From a virus (Duplodnaviria > Caudoviricetes): a stretch of DNA of 64,000 nucleotides. Shown here in pieces: positions 18 through 24,908 of this stretch (its first letter is position 1; each line of letters begins with the position of its first letter). Both the position numbers and the translations under genes were made by a program. The stretch is taken from the IMG/VR virus record IMGVR_UViG_3300032274_000001, positions 8,939-72,938 of that record; one strand, given 5' to 3'. The notes below the pieces were generated by a model. The model was not told the DNA's origin. It searched no databases and saw nothing but the letters and a program-made list of their open reading frames with translations.

Positions 18-1604
18 GTGGAGGTTGCGGCCGAGTACGAGGTCGACCTTCTGGGCGACCGGCAGGAGGTGAACCCTACCAACTTCCCCTTCGGTGGGAT
101 CGGCGTGGCACTCACCGATGCGGCTATCGCGGGCTGGGCGGTGGTCACCGACATGGGCGGCAAGTACGCCCTGGGGGCGCAGACGGCTGACCTGGAAAGC
201 GAGCTGGGCAGCCCGGTGCACACCCACCAGCACAGCCACAACCACACCCTGGCGGCGCACACGCACACCGTGCCGGCGCCCACGATAGGCATCCCGACCG
301 CGACGCAGAAGAGTGCCGACGTCAGTGGCGCTGCGCGAATCACCCGGGCGGCCAACTCGCATACGCATGCAACGCCCGCCGGGACGACGTCAGGGGCGGT
401 GGAGAGCGCGACGGTGGAGTCGCAGGTGCTGGTTACCAGCCCGGGCCCGAACGACCCGCCGACCAAGTACGTGAGCTTCCGCAAGCGGGTTCAGGCGTCG
501 GCGACCATCCCGACGAATATCTGTATCGGGTACCCGAGTGCTACGGTGCCCAGCGGTTGGACTCGAGAGACGAGTTTGGACGGGTGGTGGATCCGCGGGT
601 CTGTGCCGGGCCGGGATGGGACAGCGACGGCGCCCACCTCCAGCTATGTGCCGAACGACTCCGGATCGACGCTCAACTTGGTGGACGGGTCGAAGGTGGG
701 TCTGGGTACGCGGCTCGTCATCACAGAGGGCTCGAACACGATCACGGTGGTGGTCACGGCGGTGATCGATGCGGATTCGTTCACGGTGAAGCCGGTGTGG
801 GTGGTCGGGGACGACGACGCCACTTACACCACCGGGGCTACGGTCACGCCGGCCGCAGAGGAGGCGGGCGATACGCTGGCGCAGCTCTCCCACGACCACA
901 AGGCAGCGCTTCCCGGGCACACGCACGACCTGGCGCACGCGCATGCCATCTCGGCTGGGGTTGCCGTAGGGGCCTCGAGCGGGACCGTAGACGTGACGGG
1001 CAACTCCGGGTCTCTCAAGGGTGCTGCGGCGGATGCGCATGTGCACGAGTATTACTCGACGCTGGCCTCGGCGACCCCGACCAGTCCGTCGGCGGCAGGG
1101 ACGATTGCCGCGTCGGCGACGAACCCTGCGCCGTACTCGGAGATGGTTTTCATCAAGCCGTCAGGGTCGGAGACGGACGTGCCCAGCGACGGGATGATCT
1201 TTTGGCAGGGTGCGGCCGAGGATGTCCCAAGCGAGTGGACTGTGCTCGGGACCGTAGACGGCTTGCTGGTCAAGGGTGCGGAGACGGGATTGGGGCCTGT
1301 GTCGTCCGGGGGTGGGCACTCGCATGTCGCGACGCCGGCCGCGCATGGGGCGGCTGCGCATACGCACACTGCGGTGTTCTCCAACGATGCCGTCGCTGGG
1401 TTGGACGTCTTGCCCGCAGCGGCAATCGACTACGCGACGGCGGTACCCGAGTCGGGTGTCGGCGGTGGGAGCCACCAGCACAATATGGCCAACGGTCCGA
1501 GCGACTCTGCGAATGCGACGTTGGACGCGGCATCCGGGACGGCGACGGATGTGTCGGCGGGGCTACCCCTGCACGGCAAGCTACTCGTCATCCAGCGGAG
1601 CTAG
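18..1604 (+). CDS. Tail fibre/collar-like protein, 5' partial
   Basis: Frame is open to the window edge. A/T/S/G/P-rich with repeated H-x-H motifs (HTHQHSHNHT, HSHVA, HTHTA) and repeated IFW/ICIG..VPSGW modules typical of fibre collars. Confidence 0.65.
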   Translation: MEVAAEYEVDLLGDRQEVNPTNFPFGGIGVALTDAAIAGWAVVTDMGGKYALGAQTADLESELGSPVHTHQHSHNHTLAAHTHTVPAPTIGIPTATQKSADVSGAARITRAANSHTHATPAGTTSGAVESATVESQVLVTSPGPNDPPTKYVSFRKRVQASATIPTNICIGYPSATVPSGWTRETSLDGWWIRGSVPGRDGTATAPTSSYVPNDSGSTLNLVDGSKVGLGTRLVITEGSNTITVVVTAVIDADSFTVKPVWVVGDDDATYTTGATVTPAAEEAGDTLAQLSHDHKAALPGHTHDLAHAHAISAGVAVGASSGTVDVTGNSGSLKGAAADAHVHEYYSTLASATPTSPSAAGTIAASATNPAPYSEMVFIKPSGSETDVPSDGMIFWQGAAEDVPSEWTVLGTVDGLLVKGAETGLGPVSSGGGHSHVATPAAHGAAAHTHTAVFSNDAVAGLDVLPAAAIDYATAVPESGVGGGSHQHNMANGPSDSANATLDAASGTATDVSAGLPLHGKLLVIQRS

Positions 1605-1842
1605 GCGTCACTCTCCCGTGAGGCATCTCTTTGAGGCGGATGTTATCGCGCCATGGCCAGACCAGATCGGCGACTCGGTCGGCGGACGTTGTGAGTGTTA
1701 GTCCTGGCCCGTTCCGGAACAGGACCTGGCACCCGGAAGACCAGCTGTGCGAGGGGCCGACGCGCACGGGACGAATGCCGACGATGAAATCCCGCTCTAC
1801 CGTGGTTCCGTCTGGCAGTTCGATCAGGTCGGGTTCGCTCAT
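1588..1842 (-). CDS. Hypothetical phage protein
   Basis: Compact ORF in a coupled minus-strand run. Confidence 0.5.
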   Translation of the reverse strand: MSEPDLIELPDGTTVERDFIVGIRPVRVGPSHSWSSGCQVLFRNGPGLTLTTSADRVADLVWPWRDNIRLKEMPHGRVTPSSAG

Positions 1843-2198
1843 TCCGTCACCTCGTCAAGAATGTGCATGATCATTGGTGGCTTGTCGGTGGCCAACTGGA
1901 CGTGGGGCTTCGATGAGCGAACACTAAACCATCGCCGCTTCGTGTCCGGGTAGCTGTAGGTCGGCCCTTCTGGGTGCGTGATGTAGAACAGCAGCGCCCG
2001 CTCTGGCCTGTCGGCGCAGAGGAGCTTCCACCGTCGATTCATCTCCAGATCCCAAATACGACGCGCGAGCTTCTTCCGCAGTCGCTTCCTGCCCTTTAGG
2101 GCACTAGGTCCCCACCGTCGAATCTCGTGCTCGATCGCAGGGACACCCCTCCGGGCGCGTTCGCTGAAGTCGTCTAGCCTGCCCATTCGCCAGTTCAT
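1839..2198 (-). CDS. Hypothetical phage protein
   Basis: 4-nt stop/start overlaps with both neighbours. Confidence 0.55.
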   Translation of the reverse strand: MNWRMGRLDDFSERARRGVPAIEHEIRRWGPSALKGRKRLRKKLARRIWDLEMNRRWKLLCADRPERALLFYITHPEGPTYSYPDTKRRWFSVRSSKPHVQLATDKPPMIMHILDEVTE

Positions 2199-20163: not shown

Positions 20164-20424
20164 ATGATGGTCGGCGGACGAGGAATGCAATGCGATGCCC
20201 CGGGGTGCAGGGAAGCCTTCACAGAGCCACCACTTAGCGGGTGGGGGCGCCCTTCGCGCTTGGGTAGTACTCGGCTCCACGGGGCCGCCAGTCGCGCCGG
20301 GTGGGATTGGTTCACCGGCATGCTGGAGCGCACCTATCACTTCTGCCCGAACCACGTGGGCAAGACAGAGCACGCCCGCATGTTGCGACTGTGCTCCGAG
20401 AGCATGAAGGAGATTAGCGAATGA
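20164..20424 (+). CDS. Small Zn-finger-like protein
   Basis: CDAPGC...FCPNH...C; strong RBS. Confidence 0.6.
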   Translation: MMVGGRGMQCDAPGCREAFTEPPLSGWGRPSRLGSTRLHGAASRAGWDWFTGMLERTYHFCPNHVGKTEHARMLRLCSESMKEISE

Positions 20425-21143
20425 GCGGAATGGCACTCATGCCGGGGCAGCAGATGTCCTACAAGCGACTCGCGGACTGGGCGAAGACTGCCCCCGCGGA
20501 TCAACTACAAACCGTCTACGGGCAAGCCAGGGACCTCCACAAGCGGGCCTGGATCTACATGGCCATCACGTGCGGCGTCGCCTCGGAACGCACCGAGGGT
20601 GCCCTCACGGGTAGCGAGCTCGCGCAGACGTTCGACGTCTCGGCTATGCAGGTCTCGCGGCACATCCGGATCTACAGCCAGATCCTTCAGCCCCGGATCG
20701 AGCTACAGGGCGAGAACGCCGAGTTCTCCCTGTGGGAGGAGCACTACTTTCACCTGGCCCTGGACGCTGCCCGGCACGTGGCAGACACGGACGCGAAACT
20801 GTCGGCGTTGCAGTTCATCGAGATGGCCGAAGACGGTGGGTTCCCGACTCCCACGTCGTTCAAGGCTCATCTGATCGCACACCAGATGCTGCCCGGTGAC
20901 GACGGCTCGACGGACGTCAACTTCAGAGCCGCCGGCCCTGCGGGCAAGGTGCTCAAGGCGGTCGTCACGCTGTCTTCGGTGGATGACGAGGTGAAGAAGG
21001 AAGTCTTGGAAAAGATGGCCGACATGGACCTCGACGTCGGTACTCGTATCGGGGATGCCATCGAGTTCCTCGGGTACATGCAGAGCGAGCGCGACAGGGC
21101 GGTGGCGTCTCACGGCGAGGGGAAGGCCAGGGCGACGGCATGA
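20421..21143 (+). CDS. HTH-containing phage protein
   Basis: GSELAQTFDVSAMQVSRHIRIY. Confidence 0.6.
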   Translation: MSGMALMPGQQMSYKRLADWAKTAPADQLQTVYGQARDLHKRAWIYMAITCGVASERTEGALTGSELAQTFDVSAMQVSRHIRIYSQILQPRIELQGENAEFSLWEEHYFHLALDAARHVADTDAKLSALQFIEMAEDGGFPTPTSFKAHLIAHQMLPGDDGSTDVNFRAAGPAGKVLKAVVTLSSVDDEVKKEVLEKMADMDLDVGTRIGDAIEFLGYMQSERDRAVASHGEGKARATA

Positions 21144-21490
21144 GTTGGGACATGCACTGGCAAGCCGATCTAGGCGGGCCTGAGCCGGTCCAGGTCGGGG
21201 ACCTAGACGCTAACGTGACGAGCAACCTGAGCCCAATGATGGCCGCGGCCGTCGAAGCGGTGCACGGTGCGGACGAACCCCGGAAGCACTGGAGCGACTT
21301 CAATGGCATGAAGGCGGCCGAACTGGCGGCTCACCTAGAGCCCGTGCTGTCGTACCTGGAGGCCAACGACCTATCCGCGTTGAACCCGCCGAATGGGTGG
21401 GGTTCTCAAGAAGGCCTCACCGAAGTCGTGCGAAAGATCGTAGAGACGGCCCAGGACGTACCGGAGGCGACGCTATGGGCGTGGGGGTGA
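21140..21490 (+). CDS. Hypothetical phage protein
   Basis: N.T.NL.PM...LNPPNGWGS pattern, coupled. Confidence 0.6.
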   Translation: MSWDMHWQADLGGPEPVQVGDLDANVTSNLSPMMAAAVEAVHGADEPRKHWSDFNGMKAAELAAHLEPVLSYLEANDLSALNPPNGWGSQEGLTEVVRKIVETAQDVPEATLWAWG

Positions 21491-21843
21491 GCAAGGAAGA
21501 GGTCCTGTTGGTGCGCCGTCCACGGAGGATCGGAGCGCCATGATCGAAGGGATTATCATGCTCTTAATCGGGATAATCGTGGGCCTCGTTCCGTGGCGCA
21601 GTGTGCGGAAAGGAAACAAACGGGAGCCATGACCCAGCCCCTCTCACTCCAAGAAGCCAGGGGACAAATCACGCGACTCAAGAAAGCCGGTGACCGCTTG
21701 GCAAAGATCGTGCAGATCGGCGCAAACCTTGTCGGAGACGTGAGCCTCTCCGCGCCGTGCCAGCCCGTCATCGACTGGAACAAAGCAAAGAAACGCAAGA
21801 TCCCACCTGTGAGGCACCTCGTCCCGAAGGTGTGGAGAGAGGA

Positions 21844-22842
21844 ATGAAATTCGGCTCGCTCTTCTCTGGAATCGGAGGCATCGACCTGGGCCTCGAACGC
21901 GCTGGAATGCAATGCGCCTGGCAAGTGGAGCAAGATGAGTTCTGCCAACGAATCCTCGCCAAACACTGGCCAGATGTCCCTCGATTCGGAGATGTTCGGG
22001 ATGTCACCAGCGCCGAGCCCGTCGACCTCCTCGCCGGTGGTTTCCCCTGTCAGCCCTTCAGCGTCGCAGGCAACCAGCAAGGGACCGACGACGATCGGCA
22101 CCTGTGGCCCGAGTTCGCACGGCTGGTGCGTACTCTACGACCCCGTTGGGTGCTCGCTGAGAACGTCCCTGGCCTCCGAACTATCGCAGCTGACGAAGTG
22201 CTCAGCGATTTGGAGGCAGCAGACTACACCGCATGGCCGCTCGTGGTGGGTGCTCGCCATGTCGGAGCCCCTCACCGGAGAGACCGAGTTTGGATCGTGG
22301 CCCACGCCCAAGGCGGTGGACGGGAGAAGCAAAGGGAATGGGGGGGCTCGCAAATCACCCAGCCTCGACCAGATCGCAAGAGAGGGATCGTGGCCCACGC
22401 CAACAGCCACGGAGTACGGGAGCAACCAGTCCCCATCCGAGGGGGCTGCGATTCGTCCGAGCTTGGCGGGCTTGGTGTCGGCCAGGCCGACACCAACAGC
22501 GGCAGATGCGAACAGCAGCGGCTCGGCGGGGTACTCAACGGAAAGCGGGAGATCCGCAGGGGTGACGCTCACGGACGCGACGGTGAGGGGGTGGGCGACG
22601 CCCAACCAAACCAACCGGAAGTCCCCAGACCTCGAGACCACCGTTGGCCAGCCGGACCCGGCCAACCCCAACACGAATGGGAAGAGCCGCGCACGGTTGA
22701 ATCACCGGTGGGTGTGTCAGCTCCAGGGCTTCCCCGCAGACTGGCTCGACATCGAAGACAATCCCTGAAGGCTCTCGGCAATGCGTGTGTGCCTCAGGTG
22801 GTAGAACAGATCGGGAGGGCGATCATGGAACTGGGTGTCTGA
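21844..22842 (+). CDS. C5-cytosine DNA methyltransferase (main/alpha chain)
   Basis: Motifs I FSGIGG, IV GFPCQPFS, VI ENV, VIII HRRDRVW, X LGNACVPQ; no in-frame motif IX. Confidence 0.92.
   Translation: MKFGSLFSGIGGIDLGLERAGMQCAWQVEQDEFCQRILAKHWPDVPRFGDVRDVTSAEPVDLLAGGFPCQPFSVAGNQQGTDDDRHLWPEFARLVRTLRPRWVLAENVPGLRTIAADEVLSDLEAADYTAWPLVVGARHVGAPHRRDRVWIVAHAQGGGREKQREWGGSQITQPRPDRKRGIVAHANSHGVREQPVPIRGGCDSSELGGLGVGQADTNSGRCEQQRLGGVLNGKREIRRGDAHGRDGEGVGDAQPNQPEVPRPRDHRWPAGPGQPQHEWEEPRTVESPVGVSAPGLPRRLARHRRQSLKALGNACVPQVVEQIGRAIMELGV
21935..22768 (+). CDS. Nested +1-frame ORF, probable methyltransferase beta subunit
   Basis: Four (W/R)(P/A)TP repeats and terminal RLNHRWVCQLQGFPADW resembling motif IX. 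Confidence 0.7.
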   Translation: MSSANESSPNTGQMSLDSEMFGMSPAPSPSTSSPVVSPVSPSASQATSKGPTTIGTCGPSSHGWCVLYDPVGCSLRTSLASELSQLTKCSAIWRQQTTPHGRSWWVLAMSEPLTGETEFGSWPTPKAVDGRSKGNGGARKSPSLDQIAREGSWPTPTATEYGSNQSPSEGAAIRPSLAGLVSARPTPTAADANSSGSAGYSTESGRSAGVTLTDATVRGWATPNQTNRKSPDLETTVGQPDPANPNTNGKSRARLNHRWVCQLQGFPADWLDIEDNP

Positions 22843-23186: not shown

Positions 23187-24908
23187 ATGACTGACCACAG
23201 CGGTACCACGACGCAATTCGTCGCGCCAAGCGTTTCGCTAAACTTTCTCCCCGATGGGGCCCCGGTGTTGGAAGTTCAGGGGGTTCCGTTCCAGGCCAGG
23301 GCGGCCGAGCGGTTCATCCGGTACCTGAGGCGGGCTCTGCGGCGGGCATCGGCCTTGCCCCCGAAGAACCCTTGGCGGATCGGCGTTAAGCCGGCGAGCC
23401 TCGATGACTTCGCCTACCTGACCCTGACCCGGCCCGGAATGGCGCGCCTGGAGTACCGGGGCCGATCCTGGGAGTTCACCGCCCAGGGCAGTGAGGCTCT
23501 GCTCGAGGAGTGCATAGAGCGCTACTACCGGGGCATCCTGCCCTGGCTGACCAAGACCAACCGCCGAGCCAAGCTCAACGATGTCCTCGGCGAGATACAG
23601 AAGTCGGTCGATTCCCTCGCGGGGAACGCTCCGCCACCGCCGGCCAAGCCCCCCAGGCCCCAGAAAGCCCCCGAGAGGCCCCAGGGGACGTTCCCGTGGT
23701 TCGAGAAGGCCAGGGGGTGCGATTCTCCCGGAAGCCCCCTGGGGGCGATTCTGGGCGCCGTAGAGGGGGAGTCTGTGTTGGTCTCGGCGGTCGAATGGCG
23801 AGACGCGAGGTTCCTGCACCTGCAACGGTGGTGGCCCGACCTGGACCTTCGGTACCGGCCAGGGAAGTCGCCGATCACCATCCGGCTCAGGGAGATCAAC
23901 CGATTCGTCGGGGTGCTCCAGAGAGCCGTGCGCAAGGGGTTTGCCAAGATGTCGGTGGGCAGGCTCAGGGGGGACGGACTGTGGCTGACCGCAGAGCTCA
24001 ACCAGAACGGAGGGTTCCTTTCGCTGAAATCCACCCGGGGCGGAGAGCTGGAGCTGCCGTTGTCGCAGTGCGATGAGCTCCTGCGGTTGGCCGGCCTGTG
24101 CGGGCCGACTCTTGCAGGAATGCAATACCAACCGTGGGCCGAGGAGGAGGTTGTCGAGGTCTTGGCTACCGGCACTCACGGGGGTGGAGAAGTGCCCACT
24201 GGGGTTGAGGTTTCCAAGGGTGGCACAGAACCTGCAACGCGGGTGCGCGCACAGCGCCCGTCCGCGTCTTTTCGGTGTTCGGGAGATCGGGAACATGGGG
24301 AACCTAAAAAGCGGTTCCCCAGTAGCGCGCCTGAGGGGCGGCTTGCTGGGCAAGGGGGGCAAATCTCTCTGACTCTCGTGGGTGGAGTGAACCCTCAGGC
24401 AGAGAAGCCCAAGCCTAAACGCAAGAAAAACCGTGGGCAATTAGTAGTAGGGCGGTACTACGGGAAGGTACGGGAAAGGCTGGGACCTGCAGCGCCGAAC
24501 CCGAACTGGGCCAAGGACCTCGGGAGGTGCAAGCGGATGCTCCTGGACCTGGACGCGATGGCGGAAAAGCAGTTCCCCGGGGCGTCGCAGGAGGAGCTTC
24601 GGGCCAGGGTAGACAAGCGCGTCGGGGAGCTCATGGACCAGGCATGGGAGGACAAGTGGTTCCGGGACCTGACGGCTCCGCACTTCGGGTGCTTCTACTC
24701 GATTTGGACGCGGCTCAACTCGGCGATCGTGGTAGGCAGGCAAGCGATGCGTCGGAAGTTCTACGAGCAGTACTCAGGCCCGGAGACATCGGTGGATCCG
24801 GGGACGATCTACGCTTTCTTCGAGCGCCACGTTGGCCACGAGGGAGCGATCAGGGAGGTGACGAGAGTGCACGGAGCGGAGACGGCGAAGGAGTTTGGCA
24901 ATGGCTGA
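23187..24908 (+). CDS. Putative replication protein with internal PC4/YdbC-like ssDNA-binding domain
   Basis: VSAVEWRDARFLHLQRWW...RPGKSPITIRLREI resembles the PC4 fold; lies upstream of the helicase. Confidence 0.55.
   Translation: MTDHSGTTTQFVAPSVSLNFLPDGAPVLEVQGVPFQARAAERFIRYLRRALRRASALPPKNPWRIGVKPASLDDFAYLTLTRPGMARLEYRGRSWEFTAQGSEALLEECIERYYRGILPWLTKTNRRAKLNDVLGEIQKSVDSLAGNAPPPPAKPPRPQKAPERPQGTFPWFEKARGCDSPGSPLGAILGAVEGESVLVSAVEWRDARFLHLQRWWPDLDLRYRPGKSPITIRLREINRFVGVLQRAVRKGFAKMSVGRLRGDGLWLTAELNQNGGFLSLKSTRGGELELPLSQCDELLRLAGLCGPTLAGMQYQPWAEEEVVEVLATGTHGGGEVPTGVEVSKGGTEPATRVRAQRPSASFRCSGDREHGEPKKRFPSSAPEGRLAGQGGQISLTLVGGVNPQAEKPKPKRKKNRGQLVVGRYYGKVRERLGPAAPNPNWAKDLGRCKRMLLDLDAMAEKQFPGASQEELRARVDKRVGELMDQAWEDKWFRDLTAPHFGCFYSIWTRLNSAIVVGRQAMRRKFYEQYSGPETSVDPGTIYAFFERHVGHEGAIREVTRVHGAETAKEFGNG

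Follow-up and report, generated by a model that had tools for sequence, protein, structure and literature searches.

A phage cytosine-5 methyltransferase gene with motif IX in a nested +1 reading frame, and the conservation of its two-frame layout

A cytosine-5 methyltransferase (C5-MTase) gene in a tailed phage (Duplodnaviria; Caudoviricetes) raises the question of how an enzyme can be complete when its main reading frame carries motifs I, IV, VI, VIII and X, and motif IX is found in a different frame of the same DNA. The gene lies in a stretch of 64,000 nucleotides (hereafter the window) that is part of a 72,938-base IMG/VR virus record (IMGVR_UViG_3300032274_000001). To our knowledge, fully nested gene pairs of about 0.8 kb on the same strand that form one enzyme are very rare among characterised systems, and the single worked example of such a pair that we know of dates from 1995. 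The original prediction was that the gene belongs to this kind, with motif IX supplied from the +1 frame. The coordinates of the two frames, here called A (alpha) and B (beta), and of the segments discussed below are given in Table 1.

Table 1. Coordinates, in the window, of the two frames, the segments under protein-level constraint and the direct repeat.
Feature	Coordinates	Strand	Remark
Frame A ORF	21757..22842	+	open reading frame
Alpha gene (frame A, 332 aa)	21844..22842	+	likely ATG 21844
Beta ORF (frame B = A+1, at most 277 aa/codons)	21935..22768	+	wholly within frame A
A-constrained segment 1: catalytic large domain, motifs I-VIII	21844..22303	+	wobble at A third position
B-constrained segment 2: WPTP-type repeats and STESGR...TLTDA block, putative target-recognition region	22292..22632	+	wobble at B third position
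A-constrained segment 3: conserved block WPAGPGQPQHEWEEPR, alpha residues 268-283	22645..22692	+	wobble at A third position
B-constrained segment 4: motif IX	22691..22748	+	wobble at B third position, both alignments
A-constrained segment 5: motif X helix and C-terminus	22753..22842	+	column/segment wobble
Exact 17-nt direct repeat	22292-22308 and 22385-22401	+	93 nt (31 codons) apart, first two repeat units

A Shine-Dalgarno sequence (GGAGAGAGGA, 21834-21843) stands immediately 5' of the alpha ATG, and all five motifs are where they had been placed, with motifs I (FSGIGG), IV (GFPCQPFS), VI (ENV) and VIII (RRDRVWIVA) within the first 153 residues and motif X (GNACVP) at the C-terminal end. 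The parts of alpha follow one another in the order motifs I-VIII, unconstrained linker, conserved WP...WExPR block and motif X, and the P, C, Q, E, N and both R of its motifs are 97-100% conserved among 111 relatives. The Pfam model PF00145 matches residues 1-158 only (E 7.8e-46), meaning that the stretch from motif VIII to motif X scores as non-methyltransferase sequence; TIGR00675 (dcm) likewise matches residues 5-162, with 127 bits against a cutoff of 100.65, and phrog_363 of PHROGs spans the full length of alpha (E 2e-77). Between motifs VIII and X the chain is rich in Gly, Arg and Glu and carries no motif IX, which agrees with the earlier view that the target-recognition stretch of frame A lacks this motif. 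Motifs I, IV (PCQ, with the catalytic Cys), VI and VIII occur in order in one chain, as expected of a C5-MTase. Motifs IX and X do not occur together in one chain after a variable region, X being in frame A and IX in frame B only, so that the full C5-MTase motif set is obtained only with alpha and beta together. For the flanking ORFs at 20421-21490 and 23187-24908 (240, 116 and 573 aa) PHROGs gave nothing informative, the sole match being that of the 116-aa ORF to phrog_4019 (function unknown; E 3e-4), and no restriction endonuclease gene is evident beside the methyltransferase among these ORFs and their PHROG matches.

The predicted nested ORF of 277 codons, its four WPTP-type repeats and its motif IX just before motif X are all present. 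Frame B is open from 21848 to a stop codon at 22766-22768 and carries repeat units with an exact WPTP at 22298 and 22391, RPTP at 22484 and WATP at about 22592, followed near its end by a canonical motif IX (RLNHRWVCQLQGFPADW, 22691-22741) just 5' of the alpha motif X. Its 277-residue product has 330 database homologues at E<=1e-3 (best 8e-52), 150-485 residues long, that have in common the repeats, the STESGR...TLTDA block and a C-terminal motif IX and that vary in repeat number by whole units; no Pfam domain is on record among the 120 matches listed of these 330. In PHROGs, phrog_1008, labelled DNA methyltransferase, matches frame B (E 3e-19) and is also where B homologues are filed. No NCBIfam model was found for frame B, and a genome search with phrog_1008, too insensitive to be informative, returned no match even for the window's own record. 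Judged by its homologues, frame B is a real protein family, and the claim that the nested ORF exceeds chance is borne out both by these homologues and by the recurrence of the layout in nearly all relatives.

Two local features of the repeat region should be mentioned. The exact 17-nt direct repeat suggests that repeat units have recently been duplicated in phase or have undergone gene conversion with one another. A G7 homopolymer (22340-22346) lies inside the first repeat unit of beta, and the loss of one G from it would join the alpha N-domain to frame B, which crosses the run in register with its homologues. Phase variation through this run was considered and rejected, as the run is not conserved (homopolymers of at least 7 nt occur in 7 of 111 loci, the window included).

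Comparison with a single-chain enzyme clarifies what the two frames represent. The gp23 protein of Mycobacterium phage prophiT46-2 (OQ417970.1) is a single chain of 416 aa, and one frame encodes all of its parts: motifs I-VIII, LLPTP repeats, motif IX and motif X. Over motifs I-VIII it is 43% identical to frame A (E 2e-40), and its in-frame target-recognition domain (TRD) is 42% identical to the repeats of frame B (E 5e-12), so that the two frames of the window are collinear with one ordinary enzyme. This single-chain actinophage C5-MTase has the same order of parts and differs in having one frame and one chain.

The precedent named in the original prediction, M.EcoHK31I, is real. This enzyme of E. 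coli HK31 recognises YGGCCR (Lee, Kam & Shaw 1995) and, in the parts of PMC2836561 and PMC3404938 that describe it, has an alpha chain that bears motifs I-VIII and X together with the predicted TRD, and a beta chain with motif IX that is encoded wholly within the alpha gene in another frame; both chains are needed, and the first 42 residues of beta are dispensable. By this published description, the window gene has in its sequence every feature of the M.EcoHK31I kind: two predicted polypeptides, an alpha with motifs I-VIII and X but without IX, a nested beta with motif IX, candidate internal beta starts, and an N-terminal part of beta that is dispensable in the one case and unconstrained in the other. 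Two differences should be noted. The constrained variable region (the WPTP repeats) is in beta here, whereas the literature puts the predicted TRD of M.EcoHK31I in alpha; and M.EcoHK31I belongs to a restriction-modification system, whereas no nuclease gene is seen beside the phage copy. A second natural heterodimeric C5-MTase, M.AquI, is split in the variable region, with motifs IX and X in a small subunit that is not nested (PMC3404938). It shares the two chains with our locus and shows that the C5-MTase fold tolerates a split, but in the window motif X is back in alpha and beta is fully nested, so that the locus is not of the M.AquI type.

We consider it likely that the locus encodes an obligate alpha/beta heterodimeric C5-MTase of the M.EcoHK31I type, with beta made from an internal start. 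In this model alpha would be the catalytic chain, with AdoMet-binding and catalytic motifs I-VIII, then a linker of about 115 residues whose sole requirement would be the absence of a stop codon, and then the WP...WExPR block and the motif X helix. Beta would start at an internal start codon within the motif II-IV region of alpha and would consist of an unconstrained leader, a WPTP-repeat target-recognition array and motif IX. Its motif IX would pack on motif X and the motif I region of alpha, rebuilding the single-chain fold, and the heterodimer would methylate phage DNA, presumably guarding it against host restriction. Both chains are probably needed, and beta probably sets specificity through its repeats; protection of phage DNA is the presumed biological role.

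The first line of evidence is the recurrence of the layout. With patterns built from frame B only, 160 loci were retrieved, and in almost all of them a frame offset by one base upstream from the B match encodes a C5-MTase N-domain, in an ORF reaching motif X. In 105 non-redundant loci found through B the B match is complete and the flanking contig is long enough; in 102 of these frame A runs unbroken from the N-domain, through the stretch from motif VIII to X, past the end of B. In two of the three exceptions B ends 4-7 nt after A; in the third (locus L037, 891-2455) alpha is interrupted by an HNH nuclease ORF (1150..1629) that lies between motifs III and IV and continues in frame into motif IV, and the nested beta downstream of it is intact. 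To remove ascertainment through B, the 80 best relatives were retrieved with frame A patterns alone, and 79 of these, with GC contents from 0.32 to 0.66, have a significant B-profile match in the +1 frame. The +1 frame is thus not interrupted in close homologues, even among the 35 A-found loci with 32-45% GC, a range in which long alternative ORFs do not arise by chance. For example, alpha in locus L195 (GC 0.34) is 362 aa long and the beta nested in it 302 aa. By these counts, a large phage family has kept the two-frame layout.

Cultured phages provide further examples, as finished genomes of phages of Paenibacillus, Erwinia and Gordonia carry the arrangement. Paenibacillus phage Leyra (LEYRA_61/LEYRA_62; MG727701.1) and related P. 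larvae phages have the same nested alpha (345 aa) and +1 beta (234 aa) with the same motifs, and differ in being low-GC Firmicutes phages. In Leyra both nested ORFs are annotated as DNA-cytosine methyltransferase in GenBank, and the P. larvae phage genome papers list two methyltransferase genes and leave the overlap undiscussed (PMC6070908, PMC5056774). Gp69 of Erwinia phage vB_EhrS_59, an epsilon15-like cytosine methylase (672-1736 of its locus), is a distant methyltransferase with a different N-terminus, and contains a +1 ORF of 318 codons that has WPTP-type repeats and ends in a motif IX-like sequence; one frame only is annotated. Databases mostly annotate such loci as a single gene. In the literature searched we found no description of the layout as a property of the family; the nested ORFs treated in the Patience proteomics paper belong to other genes.

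The second line of evidence is the distribution of constraint, for which entropies were calculated per column over 111 loci and wobble was calculated per segment in alignments guided by A or by B. Constraint passes from A (motifs I-VIII) to B (repeats), to A (WP...WExPR), to B (motif IX) and back to A (motif X). In segment 1 the wobble falls at the third position of A (H 1.39 vs 0.90), and the consensus residue of a column is common to 0.70 of loci in A and to 0.51 in B; as variation at the third position of A is variation at the second position of B, frame B is not constrained in this segment. The first ~360 nt of beta (~100 codons), which overlap the catalytic motifs, accordingly show no protein-level constraint of their own. 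In segment 2 it is the third position of B that varies in the conserved B columns (W, P, T, P, L, G), and the A residues are unconserved (consensus fraction 0.49 in B vs 0.35 in A), frame A being here a linker that is open yet unconserved. Segment 3 returns to A, with H at its third position of 1.57 (A-guided) and 1.50 (B-guided) vs 1.07 and 1.20, and segment 4 to B, with consensus fractions of 0.65-0.68 in B vs 0.49-0.52 in A.

The direction of constraint in segments 1, 3 and 4 is identical under either alignment. In the repeats it is clear in the conserved columns and in the B-guided alignment, and roughly even when guided by A, owing to the poor alignment of the repeats. Counting pairwise substitutions over all columns gives a clear A signal in the catalytic part and a mixed one in the repeats, where each alignment favoured its own frame, a conflict resolved by the per-column and per-segment analysis. 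Codon-position GC inside the window alone was uninformative. The proposed two-frame conservation analysis thus finds selection on B in the repeats and motif IX and, with the 79 of 80 and 102 of 105 loci above, largely supports an M.EcoHK31I-like reading. The expectation of about 830 nt of dual coding stands in part: the DNA is open in two frames over this length, but it is not doubly constrained. Protein-level constraint acts on one frame only at any place and alternates over the five segments, and each chain is made of functional segments alternating with filler that needs only to stay open. A long overlap is sustainable in this way, the two frames taking turns in carrying constraint.

The third line of evidence concerns the start of beta. 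Candidate starts in the window are the ATGs at 21935, 21974, 21992 and 22001, of which ATG 22001 stands 9 nt after GGAG (21988-21991) and ATG 21935 stands 4 nt after another GGAG. No conserved B start position was found across the high-GC relatives. The low-GC relatives are more informative: the first B ATG lies 142-184 nt past the alpha start in 31 of 35 loci, in many of them 7-9 nt behind an AAGGAG embedded in Lys-Glu codons of alpha, and the homologous place in the window is 21992-22001. For 32 low-GC loci found through alpha alone, permutation of A codons provided a null expectation for the stretch between alpha codon 61 and the repeats. Frame B is uninterrupted there in each of the 32 vs 9.2 expected, and the +2 frame is open in 4 of 32 vs 3.5 expected. 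Read from these start regions, low-GC relatives carry an internal AAGGAG-type ribosome site and an ATG for B inside A, and beta is probably translated in the window's phage.

Granted that both chains are made, beta might be an optional accessory with a specificity-switching, regulatory or other role, and alpha might be active alone. This is the best of the alternatives, and we regard it as unlikely. It is consistent with the fact that between motifs VIII and X alpha has retained its own conserved block, WP...WExPR, and with two unusual loci. In gp88 of Gordonia phage CheeseTouch (1032-2075 of its locus), only the LLPTP repeats are in a +1 ORF (1297..1848); the annotated frame holds motifs IX and X, and the return to frame A thus precedes motif IX. 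Locus L226 (187-1955) holds a complete alpha/beta pair whose two ORFs nearly coincide (187..990 and 203..994) and, after it, a second and longer beta (987..1955); the alpha frame that overlaps this second beta has no motifs I-IV, and its motif X is broken. The second beta may serve the first alpha as a spare specificity subunit, and its presence beside a complete pair suggests that betas are exchangeable. Against an optional role, motif IX is a core structural element of C5-MTases and within the family is in beta only, beta is present in 79 of 80 alpha relatives, and M.EcoHK31I needs both of its chains in the account of it in PMC2836561.

A model of the complex also argues for beta as part of the enzyme. 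Alpha was co-folded with beta (taken from 22262) using a 44-row alignment per chain, and the complex scored 0.87, a mark that 58 of 80 solved complexes attain and that 2 of 110 mismatched pairs attain as well. Of three controls, the best scored 0.01. The runs had at least 35% contact agreement and a partner pLDDT of at least 36. In the confidently predicted interface, beta 142-166 (motif IX) meets several stretches of alpha: 10-15 and 36-41 in the motif I region, 137-144, 268-288 (where the conserved block of segment 3 falls) and 299-318 (motif X), with motif IX contacting motif X and the motif I region at low predicted error. Confidence is low for the repeat region of beta, with a pLDDT of 37-43 in the complex, and for beta folded alone, with a pLDDT of 59.6 and a pTM of 0.21. 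The model of the complex places the motif IX of beta where single-chain enzymes have theirs. Structures of single-chain C5-MTases have already been solved, however, so that the favourable outcome of this co-folding check, with motif IX on motif X, is a measure of likeness to a known fold and not proof of binding, and the score may reflect the model's memory of those structures.

A further alternative is that only frame A is expressed and that B is an untranslated shadow of constraint on A or on the DNA itself. Over motifs IV-VIII this is what the alignments look like, since the conserved B residues there are shadows of A and the second position of B is the most variable, and the gene caller of the source record called frame A and not frame B. 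The reading fails further along: from 22298 on, the wobble is at the third position of B and A residues are unconserved, and frame A by itself would have no motif IX at all. It is equally hard to reconcile with a +1 ORF of 645-960 nt that persists at 32-35% GC, or with the openness of B upstream of the repeats in all 32 low-GC loci when the +2 frame remains at chance level. We consider a shadow of this kind highly improbable.

The collinearity with a single-chain relative, and the finding that every segment is constrained in one frame only, might instead point to recoding, in which one polypeptide would be made by programmed frameshifts, one past motif VIII into B and one ahead of motif X returning to A, reproducing the single-chain enzyme. 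The alternating pattern would require four shifts rather than two, and a frameshifted gene has no need of an open frame A through the repeats. In the 111-locus set, where B codons were permuted within the B-constrained region (median 439 nt) as a null for openness, frame A is stop-free through this region in 111 of 111 loci vs 5.5 expected, and the third frame in 0 of 111 vs 3.0 expected; the 102 of 105 continuous A frames tell the same story. In low-GC loci B is also open for about 260 nt upstream of the repeats, with its own AAGGAG and ATG. A frameshift model leaves no room for selection that keeps A open through the repeats and B open upstream of them. Nor do the 111 loci have a conserved slippery site at the frame junction, as a programmed frameshift would lead one to expect: an in-frame X_XXY_YYZ heptamer occurs near the end of B in 3 of 111, and the long homopolymers are as rare as stated above. 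Double or quadruple frameshifting was rejected on the lack of such a site and on the zero frame being kept open, and its probability appears extremely small. An assembly error or pseudogene, in which two compensating indels would have split a single-chain gene (the G7 run being a typical place for an indel error), was rejected and is of negligible probability, given that the arrangement recurs, over many samples, at more than 180 independent loci, finished genomes of cultured phages among them, and that B keeps the register of its homologues across the G7 run.

An obligate two-chain enzyme of the M.EcoHK31I type remains the reading that we favour for the window, and it is the breadth of the family, together with the interleaved constraint, that exceeds a routine homologue of M.EcoHK31I. 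Since annotation pipelines mostly call one frame, protein databases, specificity predictions and expression constructs all lack the recognition subunit, and codon-optimised cloning of the annotated ORF would destroy beta and probably activity too. On balance, and with less confidence than for the single locus, we lean towards a broader generalisation: that hundreds or thousands of phage and prophage C5-MTase loci, in phages of Actinobacteria, Firmicutes and Proteobacteria, would all encode obligate nested-frame alpha/beta enzymes with interleaved one-frame constraint and with specificity in an expandable WPTP array of beta; that their single-chain database annotation, and perhaps the placing of the M.EcoHK31I TRD in alpha, would be wrong; and that stand-alone betas such as that of L226 would be swappable. 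The repeat array of beta is a candidate modular specificity element for 5mC methyltransferases.
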